Below, in pieces: positions 8,508 to 24,270 of a stretch of 64,000 bases of DNA. Position 1 is the stretch's first letter. Each line of letters starts with the position of its first letter. A program made the position numbers and the translations under genes. The notes beneath the pieces are model-generated. The model was given only the letters and a program-made list of their open reading frames with translations, ran no database searches and was not told the origin of the DNA. Location of the stretch: positions 1-64,000 of the IMG/VR virus record IMGVR_UViG_3300028030_000005; one strand, given 5' to 3'. Source of the DNA: a virus.

Positions 8508-9803
8508 TTACTTTTTCACTTTATCGCGTAGGTTTCTTAAACGACTTCCGGCTGTAGTCGCTTTTTTACCTATATCAGAGCTGCCCGGAACGTTATTAGC
8601 AGCTTCCGATTCTGCAGCTTGTTTTTCTGCTTCCAACATTTCTAATTCCTCACTGATAAACTGTCGAACCATATCGACTGTGTATGAAGGTAGAATTCTG
8701 ATTGAAAGCTGTTTTTCTTTAATGTACGCTTTCAATTGTCGCATATTCATCTGGTCGATTGAAGGCTCGACATCAAACGGAAGGTCGTTGTCGTCATCAA
8801 CAGGAGTGTCGTCTCTGTAATTATCTTGGTCGTCGTGATTGGTGGTAGTGTCGTTATCAGACTCATCGTCGTCTCCATAATACTCAGCAATTTGTTCAGC
8901 GATGTCTAAAAATTCATCGTGAGTAAATACTTCGTATCCTGACGAGAATCCAAATTGACGAAGCACTTCAGCTGACTCCTCATCGAATCGTTTTAGTCCT
9001 TCCATCGCCAACATAAAGTCACGATACTTATATACTCCAACATACATTGATTCTAATGAAGGTTGTTCTGACAACCATTCAAATTGTTCATCTGTTAGGG
9101 GAGTCGGTCCTTTCAAGTCAATCGCTACCTGATACTTTTTGCCCGGGTCTTTTTCGGATTTATTGTACGTTACAAGTACTTTACGTCCGTCATCGATTCC
9201 GGTGAAGGGGTCAACTGCGATTACTCCGTCATCGTCGTCCTGTCCGGCTGCAATTTCATTCAGTTTGTTTTTCACACTGGTAGGTAATTCAACTCGTCCA
9301 TTGGTTCCGTTCAGATTTCCATAAATGATGTAACGTGTTTGCGCTTTGATTCCGGGATGAAATCGTCCGTTTTCTTTCCAACCTTCGATTGGTCGTAAGT
9401 ACTTTTTGCGAGTATCATCATCTTGAATTTCATCGTACGCTTTTTTGTACACAAAGTTGATATACTCATCAATGATGTCTTTTTCAGTATTCCCGTGAAT
9501 ACGGCTATTGAAAATCGGTTTTTTCCCAATTTTTTGATTGCCGTTGTCATCTTTAACGGGATTGCCGTCTTTGTCAGTATAAGCCACTTTCAAAAAGTGA
9601 ACTGACCGTGGATATGCCCACATTCGTGTTCCAGGATGTTTTGGAAAGATTCTGAGTTTGTTTTTTGACCCATCTTTCTTTAACTCTAACACTTTTGCTC
9701 TGTCAGAATTTCCGGTTCTAATCTTAGATTCAACTTCCTCTTGTTGTTCTTTTAATACATCGACCTTAGTTGCTTTAAATTGGTCACGTCTGAACTTTGC
9801 CAT
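8508..9803 (-). CDS. Single-stranded DNA-binding protein, T4 gp32-like
   Basis: KNKLRIFP, DPFTGIDDGRKVLVTYNK...KYQV pattern; acidic DDDNDLPF tail; position in the recombination module. Confidence 0.7.
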   Translation of the reverse strand: MAKFRRDQFKATKVDVLKEQQEEVESKIRTGNSDRAKVLELKKDGSKNKLRIFPKHPGTRMWAYPRSVHFLKVAYTDKDGNPVKDDNGNQKIGKKPIFNSRIHGNTEKDIIDEYINFVYKKAYDEIQDDDTRKKYLRPIEGWKENGRFHPGIKAQTRYIIYGNLNGTNGRVELPTSVKNKLNEIAAGQDDDDGVIAVDPFTGIDDGRKVLVTYNKSEKDPGKKYQVAIDLKGPTPLTDEQFEWLSEQPSLESMYVGVYKYRDFMLAMEGLKRFDEESAEVLRQFGFSSGYEVFTHDEFLDIAEQIAEYYGDDDESDNDTTTNHDDQDNYRDDTPVDDDNDLPFDVEPSIDQMNMRQLKAYIKEKQLSIRILPSYTVDMVRQFISEELEMLEAEKQAAESEAANNVPGSSDIGKKATTAGSRLRNLRDKVKK

Positions 9804-11733: not shown

Positions 11734-14700
11734 TTAAAACACCTGATAAACCGGTCCATCAATGCGGTCAGTCAAGATAATTTCATTGCGATTCGTGTAG
11801 TCTGACCATTGCATTTGTCCTCTGAAAACAACCAATCTACTCTTATTCTCTGATAAAAACGACTTCAATCCTTTGAATCTTTCATCAAATAATTCGTCAT
11901 CTGGATTCAATTGCTGTGGCCATACTCTAACCATAAAATCGTATTCATCTTGAATTATTTTTATCACTGCATAATCGCGCTTATCTTTGGTTTGACGAAT
12001 CACAGCTTCTTGAATCGTTCCTGCGACCATCACTTTTACTCTTTTCCCGGGTGGTAGTGGGTGTGATATTTCCTCGCTTGAAATGTATTCATCTGAATAC
12101 TTTGCGAATTGCGATTGATTGAACAACTTATAATAGTCAAGATTGCTCAATTTACTTATCTCTGATTGACGAATTGACCAGTAGTGGTCGATATTTTGAT
12201 TGTCTCGATATTCTTTTGGAATTTCATCTTTACGATATTCAAAGAATTCTTTCAATATACCATATCGCTCACTCGGCAATTTCACTTTGTACAGTTCATC
12301 GAAACATCCTGATAGCACTAAGTGTTCAACAGTACGTTTATTGACTGCCCTACTCGGAATTCTTTCTGCGAATTCTGTTATTGAAAAGAATCTACCATTT
12401 TCATTACGTTCATCGATAATTGTTTGTGCTGCTACGTCTCCGACGTATTTAATCTGACTAAGGTTCCAGTAAATTTTAAACTGTTTATGGTCAGAATAAA
12501 ATCTTAGTCCTGATTTATTAATGTCCGGAGATACAATTTGTATATGTCCCATTCTTTTTATCTCAGAGACAAAATCTTGAATCTTTTCGGTTTTTGCATA
12601 TTGAAATGCAACTGTCCAGAATTCGAGTGGATAGTAATGTTTTAACCAATTACATTGGTATCCAATTGTACTATAAGCTGCTGCGTGTGATTTATTGAAT
12701 CCGTATCCTGCGAATACCTCCATTTTATTCCAAATCTGATGTGCTTCGGCAACAGGACATCCTTTCTTAATCGCTTCGCTAACAAATTGCTCTTTGTACG
12801 CATCCATTTTATCTTTGATTTTCTTACCCATTGCCTTACGAACTCCATCTGCTTCGGCAAGCGAAAATCCTCCTAAAATTTGCGCGGCTTTCATAATCTG
12901 TTCCTGATATATGTACAATCCATACGTATCTTTTGTCACTTCCTCCAACATATAATCGTAATGTGGTTGAAGTTCTCCTCTTTTTAACTTTACGTAATCT
13001 GTGTGTGCATTTGATGCCATTGCTCCAGGTCGATATAGTGCAATTGATGCTACTAACTCGTCAATGTTTTCTGGTTGCACTTCTTTTAGATAATTTGTCA
13101 GTCCAACAGAACCGAAGTGAAACACATCTTGATTTAGTCCTTTCTTGAACAAGTCGAACACATTTTTGTCATCAATGTCTATATTGTCGAGATTTGGACG
13201 TACTCCTGTTCGAGACTCAATCATATCTAACATTGCGCCAAACTTAGCCATCTGTTTGGTTGATAGGATATCCTCTTTTAAAAATCCTGCTGACGCCATA
13301 ATATCTCCCTCCCATTCACTAATCAACATTCCGTTTTCATCTTTTCTTACAGGGATTTGTTCAAAAATGTCAAGTACACGTCCATTTTCATCTTTTGTTT
13401 TTGGCACTATGATAGTCGCACACGCGTGCATTGATGCTGATTTTATCGCGTTTAATGCAATTTTAGAATCGTTTATGATGTGTGGATTATCTTTGATGAA
13501 TTTCTTTAATAACGGCTGTTTTACTGCGTCTTTGAATAGCGGTTGCCAATGTTCGTTGTCCTCACTAACTAATTTTGTAACGAAGTTCATATTGTAACGC
13601 TCTCCTTGCGTTCCGTATGCTCTCGCTAATTCTTTTACCACACCTCTCATCTGAAGCGTTCCGTAAGTTCCTACTCGACAAACGAAATCGTGTCCGTATC
13701 GAGTTTTCATATAATCAATCACACGGTCTCTCTTATCACTCGCAAAATCGATATCAATGTCAGGTAACTCGTGTTTAATACGCGATTCGTTGAGAAATCG
13801 CTCGAATATAAGGTCAAATCTTAACGGATTAATTCTAACAATCCCGAGCAAATAACTAACCAAACTTCCTGCTGCCGAACCCCTACCAGGACCTACTTGG
13901 ATTTTATTTTTATCACAGTAATTAACGATATCCCACAATATTAAGAAGTAGTCGACGAATTTACCTTTCTTTATAACAGACACCTCACGGTCAATTCTAT
14001 CGTGAATTTGTTGAAGTTGGTCGGTAGTTGCATTTGGAAACCTTTGTTTGATTCCTTGCTTGATTAACGAGTCAAACATATTTTCCGTCGTTCCATACGT
14101 TCTTTTCTCAATTGACGTCATCTCGTACACAGGCAAGTGTAGTTTCGATGTTTCTATTTCAAAGGTAGTGTCATCAATCACTTGTTGGATTGATTGCATT
14201 GAATCTATGAATAATTGCTCTAATCGCTCGTCATCATCACGAAATAGCGGTGCCAATTCTAAGAACAACTCATCTAAACTACGCAGATAATGATTGGTTG
14301 TGCTGTGAGTGAATTGAGCTTTGCCCTGCTTATTCAGTACACTTTTGATATGAACATCTGATTTATCGATTACATACGCATCGCTAATCAGTATTGGTGG
14401 TAATAAATCTCTCTGATTTTCGAGATATCTTTTGATTGATAATAATATTTCTTTGTCTTTGAGATTATCACGAAACTGATTGGTTGTTATTTGGAAGTAG
14501 CAATGTTTAAAATTACGTGTGAATTTTTGTATGAATTGAGATGTTGTGTGTGCTGAAGGCGGAATCACTACTATCAATCCATCACTCAACTCAAACAATT
14601 GTTGTTCTGTAATGTACTTATCTTGGTCAATATTGATAAGTTTGTTTATTTTTAATAAATTGCGCCATCCATCTGAATTCTGTACAAGTAACTTTACTTC

Positions 14701-15264
14701 CAGAAGGTCGTTAACTCCTTTAAATTCGACGTCGACAGTATATCCGAGAACAGACTTAATGTCGTTTTTTTTACAAGCAATCTGAAATGGTAACGTTCCT
14801 GCCAATGTATGTTTCTCTACAATCGCTAATGACTGGTACTTTAAGAACTTAGCCTTAGCAATCCAATCTTTATAATCTCTGGTTCCACTCATCATCTCAT
14901 ATCGTCCGTGTATTCCAAAGAATCCTCGACCGAATTCAGGAATCATACTGTCGTCGTATTCTCCTATATATTTCAATGGTTTCAGTTCTACATCAATCAT
15001 TTTTGCAGGAGTTGTGTAGTAAAAGTGTCCACCAAAATTATATATAATGTAGTCGATTTGCTGTCTCAATATAGATGTGGTTACTTTTTCATCAATATTA
15101 AGAGTTAGTAATCCATCTGACGTCAATAATGTTGGACGCATATTTTTGGGTTGCAGCTCAATCGCTACTCCGAATTTATCTATATGAACGGTTCCGTTGT
15201 GTAAGTCGTCGTAAACTATATAATTATCTGCGAGCCATTGCTCGAGTTTTTTAGTAATTGCCAT
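11734..15264 (-). CDS. dnaE: DNA polymerase III alpha subunit (family C)
   Basis: GPGRGSAAGSLVSY, FERFLN, PDIDIDF, YQEQIM, GYGFNKSHAAAY and PDINKS. Confidence 0.97.
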   Translation of the reverse strand: MAITKKLEQWLADNYIVYDDLHNGTVHIDKFGVAIELQPKNMRPTLLTSDGLLTLNIDEKVTTSILRQQIDYIIYNFGGHFYYTTPAKMIDVELKPLKYIGEYDDSMIPEFGRGFFGIHGRYEMMSGTRDYKDWIAKAKFLKYQSLAIVEKHTLAGTLPFQIACKKNDIKSVLGYTVDVEFKGVNDLLEVKLLVQNSDGWRNLLKINKLINIDQDKYITEQQLFELSDGLIVVIPPSAHTTSQFIQKFTRNFKHCYFQITTNQFRDNLKDKEILLSIKRYLENQRDLLPPILISDAYVIDKSDVHIKSVLNKQGKAQFTHSTTNHYLRSLDELFLELAPLFRDDDERLEQLFIDSMQSIQQVIDDTTFEIETSKLHLPVYEMTSIEKRTYGTTENMFDSLIKQGIKQRFPNATTDQLQQIHDRIDREVSVIKKGKFVDYFLILWDIVNYCDKNKIQVGPGRGSAAGSLVSYLLGIVRINPLRFDLIFERFLNESRIKHELPDIDIDFASDKRDRVIDYMKTRYGHDFVCRVGTYGTLQMRGVVKELARAYGTQGERYNMNFVTKLVSEDNEHWQPLFKDAVKQPLLKKFIKDNPHIINDSKIALNAIKSASMHACATIIVPKTKDENGRVLDIFEQIPVRKDENGMLISEWEGDIMASAGFLKEDILSTKQMAKFGAMLDMIESRTGVRPNLDNIDIDDKNVFDLFKKGLNQDVFHFGSVGLTNYLKEVQPENIDELVASIALYRPGAMASNAHTDYVKLKRGELQPHYDYMLEEVTKDTYGLYIYQEQIMKAAQILGGFSLAEADGVRKAMGKKIKDKMDAYKEQFVSEAIKKGCPVAEAHQIWNKMEVFAGYGFNKSHAAAYSTIGYQCNWLKHYYPLEFWTVAFQYAKTEKIQDFVSEIKRMGHIQIVSPDINKSGLRFYSDHKQFKIYWNLSQIKYVGDVAAQTIIDERNENGRFFSITEFAERIPSRAVNKRTVEHLVLSGCFDELYKVKLPSERYGILKEFFEYRKDEIPKEYRDNQNIDHYWSIRQSEISKLSNLDYYKLFNQSQFAKYSDEYISSEEISHPLPPGKRVKVMVAGTIQEAVIRQTKDKRDYAVIKIIQDEYDFMVRVWPQQLNPDDELFDERFKGLKSFLSENKSRLVVFRGQMQWSDYTNRNEIILTDRIDGPVYQVF

Positions 15265-15892
15265 AGGTTATTATCTTTCTGTTTGAAATTATGTCAAATA
15301 TTTCGCTGAATAGTAGGTATCTAACAAGTAATCCACGAACGTGGTCTTTATCACCATAAAAATAATCTAATCTCCAGCGCCGAGAAGTTACGTAATGTTC
15401 AGGAAAGTTGTCGAGCAAGTCCGTTGATTTATATCTACAAAAACATACTGTTGTTGAGTAGTCTGCAATGCCATCGACTGCTCTAATCTCTGATACGTCT
15501 AACACCAATCCGACGTCGTCGTAAAACTTAATTCCTCTCGGACTTAGTTGATAATTTAAGTCAGGATGTAGTTTTAGCACTTTGTTTGCAAACTCAATTA
15601 CTATTTTTTTATCCGTTTCTGCATATAATGGAATCAGTCGATGTCCTATTCTATCGTAATGGACGTCAGATGACTTTAATAATTGAAGCACATCTCGAGT
15701 CAGTACTGATTCGACATCAACATCACTATAAATTGTACTTAATTCTAACAACGTTACAATGTCAGAGTCGTCGACGACTAAATCGATAGCATCATTTTGT
15801 CTCAAAAAGTCTAACAACTCTGCCTTCGCTGATTGAAGTGATTTTGGTCTAATTTTCGTTATTTTGAATACTGCATCAAATACTGGCTTCAT
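15251..15892 (-). CDS. Hypothetical protein (213 aa)
   Basis: ORF track; coupled to dnaE. Confidence 0.65.
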   Translation of the reverse strand: MKPVFDAVFKITKIRPKSLQSAKAELLDFLRQNDAIDLVVDDSDIVTLLELSTIYSDVDVESVLTRDVLQLLKSSDVHYDRIGHRLIPLYAETDKKIVIEFANKVLKLHPDLNYQLSPRGIKFYDDVGLVLDVSEIRAVDGIADYSTTVCFCRYKSTDLLDNFPEHYVTSRRWRLDYFYGDKDHVRGLLVRYLLFSEIFDIISNRKIITYGNY

Positions 15893-16377
15893 TATTTCGT
15901 CATATTTTTAACAAATGTTGAGTAGTTTGATTCTGCTGTTTGTTCGTCTTTTATTCGCTTCAGTAACCGAGCGACGTATCCGCTGTTTGTTCCTATTTTT
16001 CGTGCAATTGCGGTTGGAGACGTTTCTCCACGACGAACAAAATCTTTGACTTGTTCGTATCTACTTTTACCACCCTTCGCTTTGCTATGTTTTTTCGGCC
16101 TATTTGGTGGTATTGGCAGTTTTTCGTCAACTACGTAATAGCGAATTTTACTGTACGTTTCGCCAGACGAATCCGGCCAGTTTTTCAAATACTGCGATTT
16201 CGACAACATTATGGCGTCGTGTACCATATCCTGAGTAATTTTCTCATCTATATCAGGAATAACTATTACAGTTGCTCCTGATACTCCTGAAGGTTGTTTG
16301 AAAAATAGCGTTACGTCGTTGTTGTCTGATACCATAAACTCTCGTTGTTGAATAATGTACTTAACGTCTAATACCAT
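15892..16377 (-). CDS. Hypothetical protein with a C-terminal HTH
   Basis: SPTAIARKIGTNSGYVARLLK; first gene after promoter repeat copy 3. Confidence 0.6.
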   Translation of the reverse strand: MVLDVKYIIQQREFMVSDNNDVTLFFKQPSGVSGATVIVIPDIDEKITQDMVHDAIMLSKSQYLKNWPDSSGETYSKIRYYVVDEKLPIPPNRPKKHSKAKGGKSRYEQVKDFVRRGETSPTAIARKIGTNSGYVARLLKRIKDEQTAESNYSTFVKNMTK

Positions 16378-16391
16378 AATAAATTGTTTTT

Positions 16392-16438
16392 GATTTCTAC
16401 ATCTTAAAAATACTAAATGTTTATCTTTTAAACAACAG
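16392..16438 (-). promoter_or_regulatory. 47-bp promoter/operator repeat, copy 3
   Basis: gatttctacatcttaaaaatactaaatgtttatcttttaaacaacag; overlaps the end of the DpdA-like gene. Confidence 0.75.
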
Positions 16439-17219
16439 ACTGTCTTAGAAAATCAATGTTGTTTTCAAAAGTAGTGGTGACTTGTAGTAACTTGTCAGAT
16501 TCGATTTTTCTTTCAAAATAGTTTTTTGGAGTCGGAATCCGTCGGAATCGTCCTTTAGTCCAGTCGATATCGTTCATTGCACTCCAAACTGAATTTGCAC
16601 TGTCAGAACTTCGAATGTACTTACTATACTCATCTTGTTGATAGTATGCATATTCGCGCGGGTCACCCATTCCGAGTAAGTGAAGTGGTTTTTGAAGTTT
16701 TCCATTTGCCTTCAACATATTGAATGCTATGTGTCGTGCTTCTTTGATGAATGTATCGTTTTCTTTATCTAACAACGCTTTTGGTACTGCGATTTTTGAT
16801 AGTCCTATTGTTTTAATCCACGGCTGTTCCAATCCCCATAAATAAGATTCAAACCAGTCGTCAGCAGTCTCTCCTTGTGGACAGAACAAAATTTCGATTT
16901 TATCATCCAATCCGGCTTTCTGCATTCTTTTATAGAATTTTTCTGCATTCTTTTTTGTTGTTTTTGCATCAAACAATACGTCTGGTGGAATCACTTCATT
17001 CGGCATTAATTCTGACATCACGTCAAATAAAATGTCCTCAGTAACTAATGAATGGTCTCCAGCGCCATTGTCGAGAGTAACCCACGCATTGGTAGGTAGT
17101 CGTTTAAAGAAATCACTATACTCTTTTGATTCTACATATAATTGAGCGAGACAAAAGTATCTATCTCCACTATGCATTAAACTCAAATGCTCTATTGGCG
17201 GTATTACGTAAAAATCCAT
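16428..17219 (-). CDS. dpdA: Divergent tRNA-guanine-transglycosylase-like protein (DpdA family, DpdA3-like)
   Basis: TGT-barrel motifs LDNGA, IPPD, PQG, HLLG and RSSDS; near folE/queD/queE. Likely start MDFYVIPP at 17219 (ORF track gives 17276). Confidence 0.75.
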   Translation of the reverse strand: MDFYVIPPIEHLSLMHSGDRYFCLAQLYVESKEYSDFFKRLPTNAWVTLDNGAGDHSLVTEDILFDVMSELMPNEVIPPDVLFDAKTTKKNAEKFYKRMQKAGLDDKIEILFCPQGETADDWFESYLWGLEQPWIKTIGLSKIAVPKALLDKENDTFIKEARHIAFNMLKANGKLQKPLHLLGMGDPREYAYYQQDEYSKYIRSSDSANSVWSAMNDIDWTKGRFRRIPTPKNYFERKIESDKLLQVTTTFENNIDFLRQSVV

Positions 17220-17673
17220 ATGTTTTGTTTTTAAATGTTCTACAATGTGGTCCCATTCCGTATTGAATAGATTCAATGTCCGTTAGTTTTCTGCCGCACT
17301 TTATACATTTTCCAGTATGATGATATTCTCCTACCTTCAACATTGCAGAAATATCATTTTCTACAATTTTCTTTAACAACCATACTGCACCTTGAACATA
17401 TTCACTTTGCGAATTTTGAAATTTTTTAAATCTCTTAACGATACGACTTTTTGTATTGTACAAAGCACATTGAGTGTATGAATCGTATCCTATTTCGTAT
17501 CCAACAAATACTGTGTATCCCCAATCATCGCTCTTGACTGATTTCAATTGAAATGTTATGTCTTTACCAGTTCTTTTCGACTTCACAACAATTGTTGACT
17601 TGATTTTCTTTTCAGCTTTGATGTATTGACTCAGTTTAGATAGTGCCGAAGGATTGATTACAGTGTTTTTCAT
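17170..17673 (-). CDS. DUF6011-domain protein
   Basis: C-terminal GKCIKCGRKLTDIESIQYGMGPHC zinc motif. Confidence 0.8.
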   Translation of the reverse strand: MKNTVINPSALSKLSQYIKAEKKIKSTIVVKSKRTGKDITFQLKSVKSDDWGYTVFVGYEIGYDSYTQCALYNTKSRIVKRFKKFQNSQSEYVQGAVWLLKKIVENDISAMLKVGEYHHTGKCIKCGRKLTDIESIQYGMGPHCRTFKNKTYGFLRNTANRAFEFNA

Positions 17674-17689
17674 TTTCTCGATTTTTATT

Positions 17690-17736
17690 GATTTCTACAC
17701 TGTAAAGATACACAATTCATATCTTTTAGACAACAG
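17690..17736 (-). promoter_or_regulatory. 47-bp promoter/operator repeat, copy 4
   Basis: gatttctacactgtaaagatacacaattcatatcttttagacaacag. Confidence 0.8.
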
Positions 17737-18126
17737 TTATGTTAATTGATTGTATTTTTTTATTGATGATGCAACTTGTCGAAAGCTATTCGAGCGTTGA
17801 TATAGACTATCGACAAACGCTTGTAGTTTATCAAAGTCTTTTGTTTTGAAATATCCTTTACTATCAGCTATCAGATTGTCAACTAATCCATTGACACGAA
17901 TGTGATGAATCAATTTTCGCATTCGTGGACCGTTGACTTTAGCAATCTTTTTACCGTTTTTAATTCCCTTATTTGCAAGGAACGTGTTAGTCGCTCTTAT
18001 CATTTGCTTCATTGTGATGTATTCATCATAAGAGCGACGTTGCCACGCTTTAACAATAATTGGCAGAATTTGTTGTTTTTCAAATTCTGTTAACTCATTT
18101 GTGTAGGGTTCAAATGTTTTTACCAT
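17737..18126 (-). CDS. Hypothetical winged-helix-like protein
   Basis: PRMRKLIHHIRVNGL...IADSKGYF pattern. Confidence 0.55.
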   Translation of the reverse strand: MVKTFEPYTNELTEFEKQQILPIIVKAWQRRSYDEYITMKQMIRATNTFLANKGIKNGKKIAKVNGPRMRKLIHHIRVNGLVDNLIADSKGYFKTKDFDKLQAFVDSLYQRSNSFRQVASSIKKYNQLT

Positions 18127-19223
18127 TATTCATAATCTCTAATTGCAACTACTACCGGAAATCTTGGCTTTCCGTCTGGAGTCCAATTTTGGAATCTTAC
18201 GGTAGCTTGCTTCCCGATATAAATGTCTTTGTTTCTCAATAATTCTTTCCAATAAGCGTGCGAACCTCGTGCATTTGCATCAAATCCGTCGAATTTAATG
18301 CGTCCCATCATTCCGCTACGATTTCCTGTACCCTCCTCAATATCAATAATCGTGAATTCTTGGTCGATGAATTCCTTTCTTTTTAATAGATTTCTGCTAC
18401 GACCATTTTTGTACTCACTATTTGATATTCGGATTATTTGTCCCTCGTATCCTTGTTCAAGGTATTGTTGATATAATTTATCTAACAGTGCACTTGTTTT
18501 GTTGGCCAGAAAGATGGTTTTCACTAACACAACCTTTCTCTGTGGAAATGCAAAGAGCTCTATCAGCGACTGATATCTCATAGCAAAACTTCCTGGAGCA
18601 TCGATATCATATACGTGATATTGTATCAAACTCTCTGCAAGTTCGATATCTTTTTCTGTTGGCTTTTGTTTGCGAACGATTGATGTTATTTTATTGAAAT
18701 CATCTTTGAGTTCGTGATTATATAATTCACCGTCAAGATAATAATTTTCAGGTAATCCTTCGAGAATTTTCTTGACTTCTTGTTCAATGTGCGGCACTGC
18801 TACAATTCGCTTTCCTTTGCGAGTGAATAATCCGTTTTTTGTACCTATACAACGGATTCCGTCCAATTTTGGCTGACTTGCTAATGGCTCATCATCACTC
18901 ACCTTACTTTCATAATCTCGCCACTTATGCGCTAACATAGGGTCTATTATGTGGACGTCGTCGATGAAATCAATGTGCGGAGTGTATCCTCGCTCTTGTT
19001 TCTTTTTCCATTTTGAAGTCGCTTCACGAACAGCTTGTTGTTTTGCAGTAACTTCATTCGACTTTCCTACATTTTTTGCAGTACAAACGGTCCATTTCGA
19101 AGTTGTTATCTGTCCATTGACGTATCCTTCGTGAGTACGATACTTATCGTCTCGCACTTCAATTGTCCATTGTTGAATTTTGCCGTTTTTTGCTCTTTTG
19201 TATAGTGTTTTCATATTAGTCAT
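18126..19223 (-). CDS. lig: ATP-dependent DNA ligase
   Basis: QPKLDGIRC (motif I), LDGELY, YHVYD, YEGQIIR, LLKRK and PRFP. Confidence 0.95.
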   Translation of the reverse strand: MTNMKTLYKRAKNGKIQQWTIEVRDDKYRTHEGYVNGQITTSKWTVCTAKNVGKSNEVTAKQQAVREATSKWKKKQERGYTPHIDFIDDVHIIDPMLAHKWRDYESKVSDDEPLASQPKLDGIRCIGTKNGLFTRKGKRIVAVPHIEQEVKKILEGLPENYYLDGELYNHELKDDFNKITSIVRKQKPTEKDIELAESLIQYHVYDIDAPGSFAMRYQSLIELFAFPQRKVVLVKTIFLANKTSALLDKLYQQYLEQGYEGQIIRISNSEYKNGRSRNLLKRKEFIDQEFTIIDIEEGTGNRSGMMGRIKFDGFDANARGSHAYWKELLRNKDIYIGKQATVRFQNWTPDGKPRFPVVVAIRDYE

Positions 19224-19500
19224 TGATTAAGAGTAGATTGTAAAGTCCGCACGTAGAGACGTATCGATATCCTGCGATGTCGCCACCACTCGTAGTGTCG
19301 ATTTTTGTACGAGTAAATGTTGCCGACTTTCCTGTTTTAAAATTTTTAATCTCTATAAGATGAGTTGGAACGACATCTCTCAACATCGATAATTCTTGAA
19401 CGAAGGTCGATGTTTCAGAATACCAACTAAATGCTTTGATATCGATTACTTGTCGATTTATGTCGTAAACGTCGTTTTCTAATATTGATAGTGCTGGCAT
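19216..19500 (-). CDS. Hypothetical protein
   Basis: ORF track 19216..19518; the ATG at 19500 (MPALS), right after the upstream stop, is the likelier start. Confidence 0.55.
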   Translation of the reverse strand: MPALSILENDVYDINRQVIDIKAFSWYSETSTFVQELSMLRDVVPTHLIEIKNFKTGKSATFTRTKIDTTSGGDIAGYRYVSTCGLYNLLLIND

Positions 19501-19501
19501 A

Positions 19502-19681
19502 TTATTGGTTTTTAGCAATTCTCATATCTCTAAACACCTCACCACGTAAGAGTCCGTGCTCTGCTCGAAATTGGTCAATCTTTTGGCTTAGACGAGTATT
19601 AAATTCTCTAACAGTGATTTCTTTACGAGTACATTTTTTCAATTGCTCGTTTTCGTACTTGATTAAATCTTGAATTGTCAT
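19502..19681 (-). CDS. Small hypothetical protein (59 aa, below the ORF-track cutoff)
   Basis: MTIQDLIKYENEQ...RIAKNQ read by hand; first ATG after promoter repeat copy 5. Confidence 0.6.
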   Translation of the reverse strand: MTIQDLIKYENEQLKKCTRKEITVREFNTRLSQKIDQFRAEHGLLRGEVFRDMRIAKNQ

Positions 19682-19698
19682 AACTATTGGTTTTTATT

Positions 19699-19745
19699 GA
19701 TTTCTACACCATAAAGATACTCAATAGTTATCTTTTATGCAACAG
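19699..19745 (-). promoter_or_regulatory. 47-bp promoter/operator repeat, copy 5
   Basis: gatttctacaccataaagatactcaatagttatcttttatgcaacag. Confidence 0.8.
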
Positions 19746-19968
19746 TTTTTCGAATTATTTTAAAAATTTTTTCAACATCTGTTAATTTAACACTGCCGTT
19801 GTGATATTGCAGGGCGATAACAAACCCGTGCTCAGACTGAAATTTCTGTCGCACGGGTCGATTACACACACTAACTAAATAAATCCACGGATAATTATTG
19901 ACAAACTTGAGATGAATTCCGATAGATTTTAATCTATTATAAAGTACGTCAAGTTCATTCACGCTCAA
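19735..19968 (-). CDS. Hypothetical protein (77 aa)
   Basis: ORF track; NYPWIYL motif. Confidence 0.6.
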   Translation of the reverse strand: MSVNELDVLYNRLKSIGIHLKFVNNYPWIYLVSVCNRPVRQKFQSEHGFVIALQYHNGSVKLTDVEKIFKIIRKTVA

Positions 19969-20842
19969 AAATATACTTTTTAACTTGTAACAGTCCTAAC
20001 TCCTCGTCGCGTTGATTCAACTCATTGAATGTGACTAAATCTTTTGTTTTATCCTTAGATGAGCGTTCGTAACGCAGATATCTTGTGATTGATGGCGACT
20101 GCACCCACATCATATCTGCAAGTGGAAATGTTTTGAGTATCTCTACTTGACGAACTCCACTAACAACTACAAAATCATATGAACGAGCTGCCTTAGTAAT
20201 CTCTGCAACTATTGGTTGCAACAATTCCGGATGTCCTTGCAAATGTTTTCTCTCTGTCGCAGATACGTATTGCTTAACAATATCTGAAACTTCGAGTAAA
20301 ATTACTTTCTTGCCTCTGGCGAGTAGTTCTTTGTAATATCCACGAGCAACAGTAGATTTGCCACTTCTCATATAACCACAAACAAAAGCAATGTTAAAAT
20401 CCTTAACATTGGGATTGATTTGTTGTGGTTTTTCAATTTTCTCAAATTCAATCTTACTCAAATCAACGTCAATTCGAAACGGACTTTCGTACGACACAGT
20501 AGCTCCGTTTTCGCCATCCTCTAATACAGTACATTTTGAAAGTTGAAATCGGTCAACTAACTTTTCGGCAATCATCTCACACGACATCTGTCCAAAATCT
20601 GCTAATTGCAATTCGTCGTCCCACCAACTTTCGTGTAAAAATTTATACATTTGGTTTTGTAGGTCGATAATCTCAATATCTCTATCAGCGTGACTCACAT
20701 ACTTTTCAGCAGTGATTTTGAATATATGTCTATGTACGAATTGTAAGTATCCTTGATTCTTATGATACTTTGTTTTCGTTACTCCTGGCCACGCGTGAAT
20801 TCCGGGCATTTGAAAGTTTACTACTACATTAGTTGTTTTCAC
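19955..20842 (-). CDS. Fusion of a QueD-like T-fold domain (candidate CDG decarboxylase, DpdL-like) and a P-loop nucleotide monophosphate kinase
   Basis: N-domain GIHAWP...HRHIF...DRDIEI...SCEM...EDGENG; C-domain AFVCGYMRSGKST...VVSGVR...E...RYLR. Likely start GTG at 20842, overlapping the upstream stop. Confidence 0.7.
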   Translation of the reverse strand: MKTTNVVVNFQMPGIHAWPGVTKTKYHKNQGYLQFVHRHIFKITAEKYVSHADRDIEIIDLQNQMYKFLHESWWDDELQLADFGQMSCEMIAEKLVDRFQLSKCTVLEDGENGATVSYESPFRIDVDLSKIEFEKIEKPQQINPNVKDFNIAFVCGYMRSGKSTVARGYYKELLARGKKVILLEVSDIVKQYVSATERKHLQGHPELLQPIVAEITKAARSYDFVVVSGVRQVEILKTFPLADMMWVQSPSITRYLRYERSSKDKTKDLVTFNELNQRDEELGLLQVKKYIFERE

Positions 20843-21347
20843 GTTGCTTATCTTTTTGAAATTGTCCGTTATATAAGTCATCTTTATCAACAGCATCGTG
20901 TTGATATACAAGTGCTTGCGCAATTCTCGCACCATATTCAATTACAATCGGAACAAAAACTTGCATAACTGTTCCCATTTGTTCTGTCTCAAATCCAGGG
21001 TCAAAAACACTGGAATGTAGGTTTACACCATTTCTCAATAAAGAGCTGCGTTGACGGATTAGCAACGTTCGATTGTCTGGAATTTTACATCCTTGTTCAA
21101 ATGTTACGTCATATACTCCTGGCTCCAACACCCAAACGGCATTTTCTAATCCAATTTCTTTTCCAGATTGTTTCGGAACCAGCTCTTTTTGTCCGAGTTT
21201 AGTCTTTCCTTTCTCAGGAATAATACCTCCACCATAAATTCTTTGAATTTTGAGTACGTTAAGGTCGATTCCTACTTGTTGAATGTTGTCATCACGTAAC
21301 TGCCCTGTGATAATACCTTCGTTTACAATTTGTCTTGCTGTTAACAT
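20829..21347 (-). CDS. dut: Trimeric dUTPase / dCTP-deaminase-family protein
   Basis: GIDL, RSSLLR, FDPGF, RIAQ and YNGQFQ; lacks the TLE motif of deaminases. Confidence 0.8.
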   Translation of the reverse strand: MLTARQIVNEGIITGQLRDDNIQQVGIDLNVLKIQRIYGGGIIPEKGKTKLGQKELVPKQSGKEIGLENAVWVLEPGVYDVTFEQGCKIPDNRTLLIRQRSSLLRNGVNLHSSVFDPGFETEQMGTVMQVFVPIVIEYGARIAQALVYQHDAVDKDDLYNGQFQKDKQRENN

Positions 21348-21348
21348 A

Positions 21349-21891
21349 TTATTTATTTTTATTTAAAATTTTAACATAAGGTAGATTGCGATAAACTTGA
21401 TTTCCGAATGAATTTTGTAAATCCATACCAAAGCCATATAACCACAATCCGTCTTTCACGATTCGTCCTATATAATCTACGTGAAACTCTGCACTTTCAC
21501 GTTTTAATAAAGCAGACGTTCTTACAATAGCACCTTTCTTTTCAAATAACTGCTTTATTTTAATCATCGTTTCTGCCGTATCTACAATATCATCGAATAA
21601 AATCACTTGTGTACCGCTTTTAATGTTTTTTGGCATATTTTCTATTTTTAGTTTTCCTTTCGAAAATATGCCGTTATAACTCGATGCTTTGATATACTCG
21701 ACTTCTATCGGAACAGTTACTTTTGACAATACTAAGTTCATCCACGGAACCGCTCCACTCAATATCCCAACAGCAACTACATTTGATAAGCTGAATTGCT
21801 CATAATATTCGTTGATACTGTTTGCAACCCTTTCAGCGTATTGATTAATTCGCTTAAATCCTACTAATGTTTTGTCGTTATTTATTTTCAT
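21349..21891 (-). CDS. hpt: Purine (hypoxanthine-guanine-type) phosphoribosyltransferase
   Basis: GILSGA, SSY, VILFDDIVDTAET PRPP loop, GFGMD and YRNLPY. Confidence 0.88.
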   Translation of the reverse strand: MKINNDKTLVGFKRINQYAERVANSINEYYEQFSLSNVVAVGILSGAVPWMNLVLSKVTVPIEVEYIKASSYNGIFSKGKLKIENMPKNIKSGTQVILFDDIVDTAETMIKIKQLFEKKGAIVRTSALLKRESAEFHVDYIGRIVKDGLWLYGFGMDLQNSFGNQVYRNLPYVKILNKNK

Positions 21892-22544
21892 CTTTTGCGT
21901 GCTTTATCAATCAAACTGAATAATTCATTTCTCGATGCTGTGACATCAAAGAAATAGCCACTCAATTGTGATGTCATCATTGTACTGTCGTGATGAAGTT
22001 GACGACACTTAACACATCCGTGTTGTGCTTCAATTACGACAGCGATTCCACGATTACCTTTAATCAATTGGTCGAGTTTGTCGTGAATTTGTTTAGTCAA
22101 TCCTTCTTGTAGCTGCGGTCTTTTTGCATACCAGTTCACAATACGATTGAGTTTAGATAATCCAATCACAAGGTCGTCAGGACCTGTACCTGGAATGTAT
22201 GCAACGTGAGCAAGTCCTTCAACTTCTCTGTGATGATGACTACACATTGAATGAACCGGAATGTTTGTTTGGATTACTAATCCATTATATCCTTCATCAT
22301 TTGGAAATGCTGTTACTTTTGGCATCGGATTGACACATCCCCAGATGAAGTCATCAACAAAAGACTTTGCGTATCGATACGGTGTCTTTTTGGTGTTTTC
22401 ATCAGCTTGCCAATCAAATCCCAATGCAGTTAAAAAATCACCGTAGTGTTTAGCTGCTTCGTCAATCATTTGTTGTTTTTCTGCTTCTGTACGAACCAGA
22501 TTGCCATTCGCTCTTTCGAGCAATTTTAATTCTTTGCTATTCAT
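21888..22544 (-). CDS. folE: GTP cyclohydrolase I
   Basis: TPYR, SMCSHH, GLSKLNR, RPQLQE and HGC. Confidence 0.95.
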   Translation of the reverse strand: MNSKELKLLERANGNLVRTEAEKQQMIDEAAKHYGDFLTALGFDWQADENTKKTPYRYAKSFVDDFIWGCVNPMPKVTAFPNDEGYNGLVIQTNIPVHSMCSHHHREVEGLAHVAYIPGTGPDDLVIGLSKLNRIVNWYAKRPQLQEGLTKQIHDKLDQLIKGNRGIAVVIEAQHGCVKCRQLHHDSTMMTSQLSGYFFDVTASRNELFSLIDKARKR

Positions 22545-22561
22545 CTTAAAACTTATTTTTA

Positions 22562-23317
22562 TTAAACTCCTCTTTTATTACCGTACGCAACTATATGAAT
22601 ACGGTCAGTGTAATTATATCCGTTTTGCCACGCATATTGCATAAGCCATCCGCGCGTTTTTTGAAGCTCATCATTCGTTCCTCCAGCAGGCATCAACCAA
22701 ACTTTTTCGTTTGGAATGTGTAATTTCTGCTGAAGTTCTTGTAATTCTTGCAACATCTGAGTATTTGAAATTACTGGTTTGAGTTGATAGTCCCGAGAGT
22801 CTATCATACTATATAACATCGCATCATAATTCTTGCGATTGGTTTCGTGTAATTTATAGTGTGTAGATGTAACTTTTTTACCGTCTGGTGCAGCAGTTCC
22901 TATTCTCGGACTACTATTCGATAACTTTGGACTCAATGACAGTAAATCCACTTTCAGTCCTTCGACAAACTTGCTTCCTTCAGTTTCTAATGTTACGTAA
23001 TGGTCGTAAGACTTTGCGATGTGAATCAAATCTTTTAGCAGTTTTTCGTGTAACGTCGGACTACCTCCAGTAATCATCGTATGTTTTATCTGTGGATTTT
23101 GCTTATAAATTGCAATCACGTCGTTAAGTGTGAATGAGCCCTTCTCTGGATTCCAGCTTGTATATGCACTATCACAGAAATCTGTATCGCTGAATTGACA
23201 TCTTAACGGACATCCTGTTGTTCTTATTAAGATGTGTGGGATTCCAGTCAGTTTACCTTCACTTTGTAAACACGGATACACTTCAACTATTGGCTGTGGC
23301 TTCTGATATTTTGTCAT
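22562..23317 (-). CDS. queE: 7-carboxy-7-deazaguanine synthase (radical SAM)
   Basis: LQSEG, RTTGCPLRC...FCDS, ITGG, ETEG, SLSPK and RIH...GNKRGV. Confidence 0.93.
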   Translation of the reverse strand: MTKYQKPQPIVEVYPCLQSEGKLTGIPHILIRTTGCPLRCQFSDTDFCDSAYTSWNPEKGSFTLNDVIAIYKQNPQIKHTMITGGSPTLHEKLLKDLIHIAKSYDHYVTLETEGSKFVEGLKVDLLSLSPKLSNSSPRIGTAAPDGKKVTSTHYKLHETNRKNYDAMLYSMIDSRDYQLKPVISNTQMLQELQELQQKLHIPNEKVWLMPAGGTNDELQKTRGWLMQYAWQNGYNYTDRIHIVAYGNKRGV

Positions 23318-23630
23318 CTAAATATTTTTTGAATTCGTTTAATTTTTTATGTGCAGTGGCTAAATCTGCTACTGCAGCCGCTTTAACGGTCGTAGCAAAT
23401 TCCTCATTACCTGGAAATTTTTCTCCAGCAGGAATAACAATCCCACTTGGAGTCGTTATATCGTGCTTTCTTACAGGAATGATGAATACTTCATAATCTA
23501 ATGCAGGAGTAAATTCACCATCGCGACGCGAATAAATCGCAATTGACTTTCCTGAAGCTGCGTGTAGTTCTCGATATTCTTGTTGATAAGTAAATCGATT
23601 TTTTCTTAATGTTTTTTGTAGTGTGACCAT
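23283..23630 (-). CDS. Hypothetical protein (115 aa) inserted between queD and queE
   Basis: ORF track; preceded by its own promoter-like repeat. Confidence 0.6.
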   Translation of the reverse strand: MVTLQKTLRKNRFTYQQEYRELHAASGKSIAIYSRRDGEFTPALDYEVFIIPVRKHDITTPSGIVIPAGEKFPGNEEFATTVKAAAVADLATAHKKLNEFKKYLDDKISEATANS

Positions 23631-23635
23631 TCTAT

Positions 23636-23700
23636 ATGTTTTGTGTAAAGATACTAAATGTTTTGTGTAAAGATACTAAATGTTTATCTTTTTTACAACA
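23636..23700 (-). promoter_or_regulatory. Variant promoter repeat (copy 6) with a 22-bp tandem duplication
   Basis: (atgttttgtgtaaagatactaa)x2 at 23636-23679, then AAAGATA-N9-TATCTTT and caac. Confidence 0.7.
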
Positions 23701-24270
23701 TTAAAAAGAGACCTTACAATGTGATTTTGGCGTCTCCCAAAATTCAACTGCACTCACGACTACACCAATTTTCTGCATTTTCTCGCGTGCAATGTCCAAT
23801 AACCAACTGGTTAAATTTTCGCTTGTAGGAACGAAATCAACAAAAACCATTCCTTCGTACTTCTCATATACTGCAGGATGAACCGATTGTAATTGGTTTA
23901 AGTCAGGAAGCCAAAATCCTTGTGAAAATTTGTGTAGTTTATTGAAATCAAGCTTTCCGTCCTTACATAATTCCGGTACCTCGTGCCAAATAATAGGGTC
24001 GTTGATGTCCATAATAAATTTGTGGTCGAGCGTATCATCAATAAAATCTTTGAACCATCCTAAGTGCTTGAAGTCAGTTACCATTCCTCCTTCTAATATA
24101 GGAGCTTTCAGATGTACTTTGATTTTTCCTTGATGTCCGTGTAGATGGCGGCACTTTAAGCATTGGTCTCCATTTGAAGTGTATTCACTGTTTAATTTTT
24201 GGTTGTGGACTCTATGTCCATAACAGAAATCGAATTGTTTGTCGATTTCCCACATTCTTTGATTTTCCAT
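23701..24270 (-). CDS. queD: 6-carboxy-5,6,7,8-tetrahydropterin synthase
   Basis: FCYGHR, CRHLHGH, GMVTDF, LDH, PTSENL and WETP. Confidence 0.93.
   Translation of the reverse strand: MENQRMWEIDKQFDFCYGHRVHNQKLNSEYTSNGDQCLKCRHLHGHQGKIKVHLKAPILEGGMVTDFKHLGWFKDFIDDTLDHKFIMDINDPIIWHEVPELCKDGKLDFNKLHKFSQGFWLPDLNQLQSVHPAVYEKYEGMVFVDFVPTSENLTSWLLDIAREKMQKIGVVVSAVEFWETPKSHCKVSF

Follow-up and report, generated by a model that had tools for sequence, protein, structure and literature searches.

A phiST-type 7-deazaguanine gene cluster in an uncultivated phage and a candidate nucleotide-pool route to modified DNA

FolE, QueD, and QueE make 7-carboxy-7-deazaguanine (CDG) from GTP, and the genes for all three are clustered, without queC, in the phage sequence considered here, i.e., the IMG/VR virus record IMGVR_UViG_3300028030_000005; the window analyzed is the first 64 kb of this 97,645-bp record. 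The closest described system is that of the Cellulophaga phage phiST, in whose DNA every 2'-deoxyguanosine (dG) is replaced by 2'-deoxy-7-deazaguanosine (dDG) (PMC10516641). The names DpdL and DpdA3 come from that study (Cui, Hutinet et al., NAR 2023), whose authors concluded that the insertion is post-replicative (PMC10516641). In the literature, DpdL is proposed to decarboxylate and DpdA3, having the fold of the tRNA-guanine transglycosylases (TGT), to create the new glycosidic bond by swapping guanine for the deazapurine. A further gene, CGPG_00066 (by gene order, the "ATPase" gp041), was set aside, other phages being said to lack it, and no dDG was obtained when DpdL and DpdA from phiST or ACP17 were expressed in E. 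coli, the paper mentioning no kinase as having been expressed with them (PMC10516641). The concept of a modified dGTP made by the phage is itself not new, since it was floated in 2019 for Campylobacter phages (PMC6884629) and dropped in 2023 (PMC10516641).

While the phiST paper describes the kinase as not conserved, in the surveys of IMG/VR loci reported here it is conserved together with DpdA3. On these grounds, and reading from sequence, we give an even chance to the possibility that the module of the present phage replaces dG by dDG with the base exchange occurring on the free deoxynucleotide, and not on finished DNA. Our literature search retrieved no paper linking a kinase, a deoxynucleoside triphosphate (dNTP) hydrolase (dNTPase), or a phosphoribosyltransferase (PRTase) to DpdA3, or describing a pre-replicative dDG route.

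The gene cluster and its comparison with phage phiST

In phiST, the order of the genes is QueD-QueE-FolE-MazG (gp039)-DpdL (gp040)-"ATPase" (gp041)-DpdA3 (gp042, the founding DpdA3), followed at some distance by DnaE. The window harbors the same pathway genes in the same order, with homologous DpdL, kinase, and DpdA3, with DnaE downstream and with no QueC. It differs from phiST in that DpdL and the kinase, which are separate proteins there, form one polypeptide; a DCD/dUTPase-fold enzyme occupies the place of MazG; an Hpt-like PRTase is added between folE and the DCD-like gene; and DpdA3 is set apart from the run by a ligase gene and small genes. The DpdL motif, the presence of a 45%-identical DpdA3 with a TGT fold, the absence of QueC and QueF, and the full replacement of dG by dDG in phiST DNA lead us to conclude that the region is, judging from its sequence, a member of the known phiST-type QueC-less dDG system, in an uncultivated phage known from sequence alone. 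Short-read data read dDG as G.

The genes of the region, named by means of Pfam and NCBIfam profile searches, are the following (window coordinates; aa, amino acids; ORF, open reading frame):

23701-24270, minus strand: queD (CPH4 synthase), 189 aa; Pfam PTPS 1.6e-25, TIGR03367 3e-14, catalytic CxxxHGH present
23283-23630, minus strand: ORF115, 115 aa, no family; phmmer 3e-24 to locus L003 and 2e-18 to locus L004
22562-23317, minus strand: queE (radical-SAM CDG synthase), 251 aa; Radical_SAM 2.7e-07, TIGR03365 1.9e-18, 44% identity with phiST QueE
21888-22544, minus strand: folE (GTP cyclohydrolase I), 218 aa; PF01227 2.4e-41, 44% identity with phiST FolE
21349-21891, minus strand: divergent Hpt-like 6-oxopurine PRTase, 180 aa; Pribosyltran 5e-16, best NCBIfam match HGPRTase
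20829-21347, minus strand: DCD/DUT-family (trimeric dUTPase fold) predicted dNTP pyrophosphatase, 172 aa; PF22769 1.7e-13
19955-20842, minus strand: DpdL~kinase fusion (QueD-like T-fold plus P-loop kinase), 295 aa; motifs, alignment with phiST, AlphaFold2 (AF2) model, Foldseek
18126-19223, minus strand: ATP-dependent DNA ligase; PF01068 1.6e-15, PF14743 2.4e-07
17170-17673, minus strand: DUF6011 protein, 3' end overlapping the DpdA3 start; PF19474 1.8e-09
16428-17219, minus strand: DpdA3-type transglycosylase, 263 aa; 45% identity over 266 aa with phiST gp042, phrog_20335 3e-67
11734-15264, minus strand: DnaE (Pol III alpha), phage replicative polymerase; PF07733 8.7e-64, PF17657, PF02811, 37% identity with phiST DnaE

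Read 5' to 3' on the minus strand, the run consists of queD, ORF115, queE, folE, the PRTase gene, the DCD/dUTPase-fold gene, and the DpdL~kinase fusion, so that every gene that the original prediction had assigned to the cluster is present. The folE and PRTase genes overlap by 4 nt, the PRTase and DCD genes are separated by 1 nt, and the DCD gene overlaps the fusion gene by 14 nt. The fusion is followed by two small ORFs, the ligase gene, two small genes (one of them DUF6011), DpdA3, two further genes, and dnaE; the divergent TGT-like gene expected between ligase and DnaE was thus found at that place, 2.7 kb beyond the run. Moreover, the absence of queC, queF, and gat-queC, claimed for the window, extends to the whole 97,645-bp genome, in which neither QueC (PF06508) nor QueF (PF14489) was found while control searches were positive; Gat-QueC, if encoded, would have been caught by the QueC model.

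The fusion gene exists as predicted, even though its ORF had been drawn to the TTG at 20941; translation more likely begins at the GTG at 20842, which gives 295 residues. The N-terminal T-fold of the protein carries the DpdL signature LxxxHRHxF (as LQFVHRHIF) where QueD has CxxxHGH, and H37, R38, H39, and F41 are invariant across 31 homologues. The alignment with phiST revealed that gp040 (DpdL) covers the N half and gp041 the C half. In Foldseek searches with the AF2 model (pLDDT 87.8), the N half matched QueD (4ntk), and the nearest structure to the kinase half was an adenylate-kinase relative (3lw7, AMP-bound), with 3h0k and AK1 also retrieved. The kinase half has the P-loop GxxxSGKS, with G161, K162, R231, and R257 invariant and R198 and R254 nearly so. 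According to sequence and model, the C-terminal domain is an adenylate-kinase-like P-loop nucleoside monophosphate (NMP) kinase, homologous to phiST gp041 (CGPG_00066, again by gene order). The family is small (107 representatives among 1.84 billion) and was found solely alone or behind DpdL; many sequence clusters carry the fused form, and no fusion of the kinase with DpdA3 occurs among the 107 representatives. A kinase-domain tree places the fused forms in two distinct clades (support 0.93 and 0.90), both of them embedded among unfused kinases, which argues that the DpdL~kinase fusion arose at least twice.

Concerning DpdA3, the top Foldseek matches of its AF2 model (pLDDT 95.7) are ArcTGT (1j2b) and TGT (4giy), with a TMq of about 0.6, and the model indicates that the protein is a minimal TGT TIM barrel without the zinc subdomain. 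Residues D50, D80, Q115, R162, H180, and D206 are invariant, with an invariant Asp at three barrel positions, and no Cys is conserved (no zinc site). The kinship with TGT is visible by fold search alone: a profile built on 38 DpdA3 sequences matches nothing among the PDB sequences, and the Pfam TGT model misses the protein, as also reported previously for DpdA3. The comparison with DpdA3 and DpdL suggested in the original prediction had a positive outcome, given the identity with phiST gp042 and the DpdL signature. Throughout the DpdA3 family the proteins are acidic (median net charge -7), and conserved basic residues are few; the net charge was considered as an arbiter between a DNA and a nucleotide substrate and dropped, being too weak.

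As for the neighboring genes, ORF115 had no match in Pfam, NCBIfam, or PHROG, and its position between queD and queE is kept in the sister loci L003 and L004. The two genes between DpdA3 and DnaE (161 and 213 aa; 15251-16377, minus strand) have no family match, and ORFs of similar length occupy the same interval in L003 and L004. A scan of the 15-25 kb stretch for sigma-70 promoters and terminators gave results at chance level and is uninformative on operon limits. The record is a single IMG/VR sequence with a CheckV completeness of 94% and a G+C content of 36%, and its genes are encoded almost exclusively on the minus strand. When the region was compared by Megablast with 50,697 deposited phage records, no match was retrieved, which implies a phage without a cultured close relative.

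Kinases and dNTP pyrophosphatases beside DpdA3

The distribution of the genes of the module was checked in two surveys. The first one, anchored on DpdL, embedded 80 IMG/VR loci plus phiST and the Chryseobacterium phage MA9V-3 (82 loci). DpdA3 is present in 19 of the 82, and 17 of these 19 have a kinase beside it, either adenylate-kinase-like (AK-like; 8 loci) or of the DUF3310 type (9 loci); in the loci with a strong DpdA3 match, the AK-like P-loop family occurs in 8 out of 8. The DpdL loci lacking DpdA3 served as a control, and among them an AK-like or DUF3310 kinase was found in 0/63 and a dNTPase in 1/63. The second survey, anchored on DpdA3, included 80 further IMG/VR loci, 68 of which have a kinase no more than 2.8 kb away (median 1.26 kb); 59 encode a dNTPase of the DCD-like or MazG type, and 70 encode DpdL. 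The original prediction had proposed a neighborhood survey for PRTase and kinase, and the association with DpdA3 is borne out for the latter and not for the former (22/80). After collapsing DpdA3 at 70% identity, which yielded 38 clusters, the kinase is kept in 29 and the dNTPase in 31.

Furthermore, three families unrelated to one another occupy the kinase slot, that is, AK-like P-loop proteins, DUF3310/T7 gp1.7-like proteins (which match PHROG "nucleotide kinase" families), and a T4-gp1-type deoxynucleoside monophosphate (dNMP) kinase (PF21448), the last one occurring in the same slot in one locus that has neither an AK-like nor a DUF3310 kinase. At least 14 loci harbor a bare DpdL-kinase-DpdA3 trio without que genes.

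Some features of single loci can be added. L012 (6961-9915) and about 14 similar loci (L102, L114-L135) have the DpdL-kinase-DpdA3 arrangement and lack folE, queD, and queE over a distance of 10 kb; the CDG of phages with this minimal module may come from the host. L012 also has a ThyX gene placed between those for DpdL and the kinase, and a gene for a glycosyltransferase after DpdA3. In most IMG/VR loci where DpdL stands beside FolE, QueD, and QueE, DpdA3 is missing from the 10 kb around (63 loci within L005-L082), and a search for the transglycosylase of such loci in the records of L064, L069, L071, L052, and L050 (one of them 92% complete) gave no match to Pfam TGT or to the DpdA3 profile. 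Zinc-finger proteins (DUF4379/CapR, one with T5orf172/MUG113) adjoin DpdA3 in L144 (11557-12663), L153 (9210-9974), and L156 (9237-9986), and their genes look like inserted homing-endonuclease-type genes. In L139 (10786-11733), a FolE2-type GTP cyclohydrolase (PF02649) replaces FolE, between DpdA3 and the DCD-like gene. Lastly, in the cultured phage MA9V-3 (L002, PV245944), DpdL makes up the C-terminal portion of a protein of 293 aa (8530-9432), which has an additional region at its N terminus; the cluster also has a B12-dependent ribonucleotide reductase (RNR), ThyA, and RecA, and the phage is usable as a laboratory model for the module.

Base exchange on the nucleotide or on finished DNA

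In the reading that we favor, the DCD/dUTPase-fold enzyme (MazG in phiST) would cut dGTP to dGMP, thereby removing the competitor and supplying the acceptor; DpdA3 would then exchange the base on dGMP, the kinase fused to DpdL would phosphorylate the product to the diphosphate, the host nucleoside diphosphate (NDP) kinase would make the triphosphate (dDGTP), and the phage DnaE would incorporate it. Since the fusion suggests that the DpdL product is the kinase substrate, the decarboxylation may occur at the monophosphate level. This nucleotide-pool route is preferred to an exchange in DNA because unrelated kinases and two unrelated dNTP pyrophosphatases interchange in the same slots and because the fusion of kinase and DpdL is repeated. 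The support comes from gene association, and the specificities of the kinase, of the DCD-like enzyme, and of the PRTase are unreadable from sequence.

If this explanation holds, the scheme would resemble the Z-genome of cyanophage S-2L and its relatives (PurZ, MazZ, DatZ; PMC8342488, PMC8065100), in that dGMP is supplied by a dNTP pyrophosphatase and the modified dNMP by an enzyme of its own, after which kinases take the latter to the dNTP used by the phage polymerase, the canonical dNTP being eliminated. It would differ in the base (A there, G here), in the enzymes, which are unrelated, and in the bond-forming step, which here would be a TGT-fold exchange instead of purine-ring chemistry. As with T4 gp1 and T7 gp1.7, a phage kinase would act on a dNMP, non-canonical or of the dG type, on its way to the triphosphate, even though the window kinase belongs to a third, adenylate-kinase-like family (about 107 cluster representatives) and is fused to DpdL. 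More tentatively, and slightly against the balance of chances, DpdA3 would be the first TGT-superfamily enzyme exchanging the base of free dGMP and would constitute, with a dGTP pyrophosphatase and a DpdL-fused dDGMP kinase, a Z-genome-like pre-replicative all-7-deazaguanine pathway in which the PRTase recycles guanine to GTP.

Several observations weigh against an exchange in the nucleotide pool. To our knowledge, all the characterized TGT/DpdA enzymes work on polynucleotides, and none acts on a mononucleotide; DpdA3 shares their fold. Kinases and dUTPases are common genes of phage nucleotide metabolism and could be neighbors for regulatory reasons. No kinase lies within 10 kb in 12 of the 80 DpdA3 loci (two of which are truncated), 21 DpdA3 loci, minimal modules among them, lack a dNTPase, and the raw counts overstate independence because the loci are phylogenetically related. 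In addition, the very authors who found dDG in phiST conclude that it is inserted after replication (PMC10516641). According to their published model, extended to the present genes, DpdA3 would swap guanine for 7-deazaguanine or CDG in replicated DNA, DpdL would act on the free base, and the kinase, the DCD-like enzyme, and the PRTase would be ordinary supply functions (a dNMP/GMP kinase, a dUTPase, and guanine salvage to GTP for FolE). The 63 loci with DpdL and no kinase imply that DpdL can work kinase-free; moreover, none of the canonical residues of 6-oxopurine PRTases is missing from the PRTase, the N7-contacting Asp included, and the DCD-like enzyme, the sole one with a dUTPase fold in the genome, has its best match in a dUTPase model.

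As to this last protein, it scored 94 bits (6e-27) with the archaeal-type dUTPase model NF002598, under the cut-off of 130, and 33 bits with dCTP_deam (cut-off 92.8); its nearest PDB match is 9w59 (4.7e-10), and by reading of the sequence the position of the dCTP-deaminase Glu is occupied by Gln. These data place it in a clear fold family, as an equivalog of neither dUTPase nor dCTP deaminase; a role as dCTP deaminase was rejected in view of the replaced Glu. It is the sole dNTP-hydrolase-fold gene found, and no nucleoside deoxyribosyltransferase, HD domain, MazG domain, or second dUTPase was detected in the whole genome.

The published model, which we consider rather unlikely although it is the strongest competitor, leaves unexplained why three unrelated kinase families stand beside DpdA3 and are absent from the DpdL loci devoid of it, why DpdL was fused to a kinase on two occasions, and why the bare trio recurs. 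A 100% replacement is, moreover, demanding for a post-replicative enzyme, the acidity of DpdA3 with its few conserved basic residues is a weak hint in the same direction, and DpdL plus DpdA alone yielded no dDG in E. coli (PMC10516641).

A different entry into the nucleotide pool would pass through the PRTase, as in the biosynthesis of tubercidin and toyocamycin, where TubE, a purine-type PRTase, joins CDG and phosphoribosyl pyrophosphate (PRPP) and the decarboxylation takes place later, at the nucleotide level (PMC6112128). On this scheme, the window PRTase would join CDG or 7-deazaguanine with PRPP, DpdL would decarboxylate the ribonucleoside monophosphate, the fused kinase would make 7-deaza-GDP, host RNR and NDP kinase would convert it into dDGTP for DnaE, the DCD-like enzyme would clear dGTP, and the exchange by DpdA3 would serve as a back-up or for proofreading. 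The window and the tubercidin/toyocamycin clusters (TubE/ToyH, TubF; PMC6112128) share a QueC-less FolE/QueD/QueE set beside a purine-type PRTase and a decarboxylase. However, the decarboxylase is a UbiD enzyme there and the T-fold DpdL in the window, the product of the window would be destined for DNA, the run has no GMP-reductase-like or Nudix tailoring gene, and the window PRTase keeps the N7-contacting Asp.

The PRTase gene lies between folE and the DCD-like gene, abutting both, and its association with the cluster is real, since two PRTase families sit inside que operons, one Hpt-like (window, L003, L004, L070) and one Gpt-like (T4-like loci), and the PRT-DCD-DpdL-kinase block recurs in other lineages (L098, L101, L105, L107, L149). 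The protein aligns over its full length with HGXPRT 1hgx (6e-15) and keeps the PRPP motif DDIVDT, the 6-oxo Lys (LLKR), and the stacking Trp; with TIGR01203 (HGPRTase) it scored 101 bits (5e-29), under the cut-off of 150, and so it is not an Hpt equivalog. It is very divergent: in a search of 5.8 billion proteins, a single relative, from a sister phage, exceeded 32% identity. A recent capture of a host hpt was considered as its origin and rejected, since the identity with any cellular Hpt is at most 32%.

The Asp of the DDIxD(S/T)G motif, specific to 6-oxopurine PRTases, acts on N7, an atom that 7-deazaguanine does not have, and would presumably also face the 7-carboxylate of CDG. It is kept in 37 of the 38 locus PRTases checked and in that of the window. 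The PRTase is, moreover, present in merely 22/80 DpdA3 loci and in 14/38 DpdA3 clusters, and phiST, with 100% dDG, has none; PRTases also occur in DpdL loci lacking both DpdA3 and kinase, and their distribution thus follows the que genes rather than the kinase. The whole 97.6-kb genome encodes no RNR, whether of class I, II, or III, so that the in-phage reductase for which the original prediction had suggested a search is absent. The route would also leave the universal DpdA3 with no necessary role. For these reasons, a PRTase-centered ribonucleotide core, which the original prediction had foreseen, is not supported, the kinase being near-universal at DpdA3 loci and the PRTase not; what persists of that prediction is a QueC-less system leading from CDG to 7-deazaguanine, with a kinase and a dNTP pyrophosphatase recurring in DpdA3 modules. 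We thus regard the PRTase route as distinctly improbable, and a tubercidin-like joining of CDG and PRPP as a possible auxiliary entry, by analogy. Given its occurrence in about a quarter of the DpdA3 loci, the conserved N7 Asp, and the lack of a phage reductase, the Hpt-like PRTase most likely returns the expelled guanine to GMP and then to GTP, feeding FolE.

Finally, the cluster might not modify DNA at all, and either boost the queuosine precursors of the host, as raised in 2019 by Hutinet for phages with que genes and no DpdA (PMC6884629), or make a free deazapurine metabolite. This is scarcely credible: DpdA3 is 45% identical to that of phiST, the gene order matches that of a phage with fully dDG-substituted DNA, and without QueC there would be no preQ0 for queuosine.

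Implications for 7-deazaguanine phages

As an account of how phages reach a complete replacement of G by 7-deazaguanines, the modified-dGTP idea of 2019 was set aside in 2023 on the discovery of DpdA3. The kinase dismissed in the phiST study turns out to be the most faithful companion of DpdA3, swapped for unrelated kinases elsewhere and twice fused to DpdL, and this companionship gives a concrete, testable reason for the failure of DpdL and DpdA3 in E. coli. The window adds, as far as can be told from sequence, a DpdL~kinase fusion architecture that evolved twice and an Hpt-type PRTase inside the operon. If the exchange is indeed pre-replicative, these phages would join the Z-genome as the second purine system in nature with full substitution and would offer a compact enzymatic source of 7-deaza-dGTP, already a reagent in sequencing and PCR.

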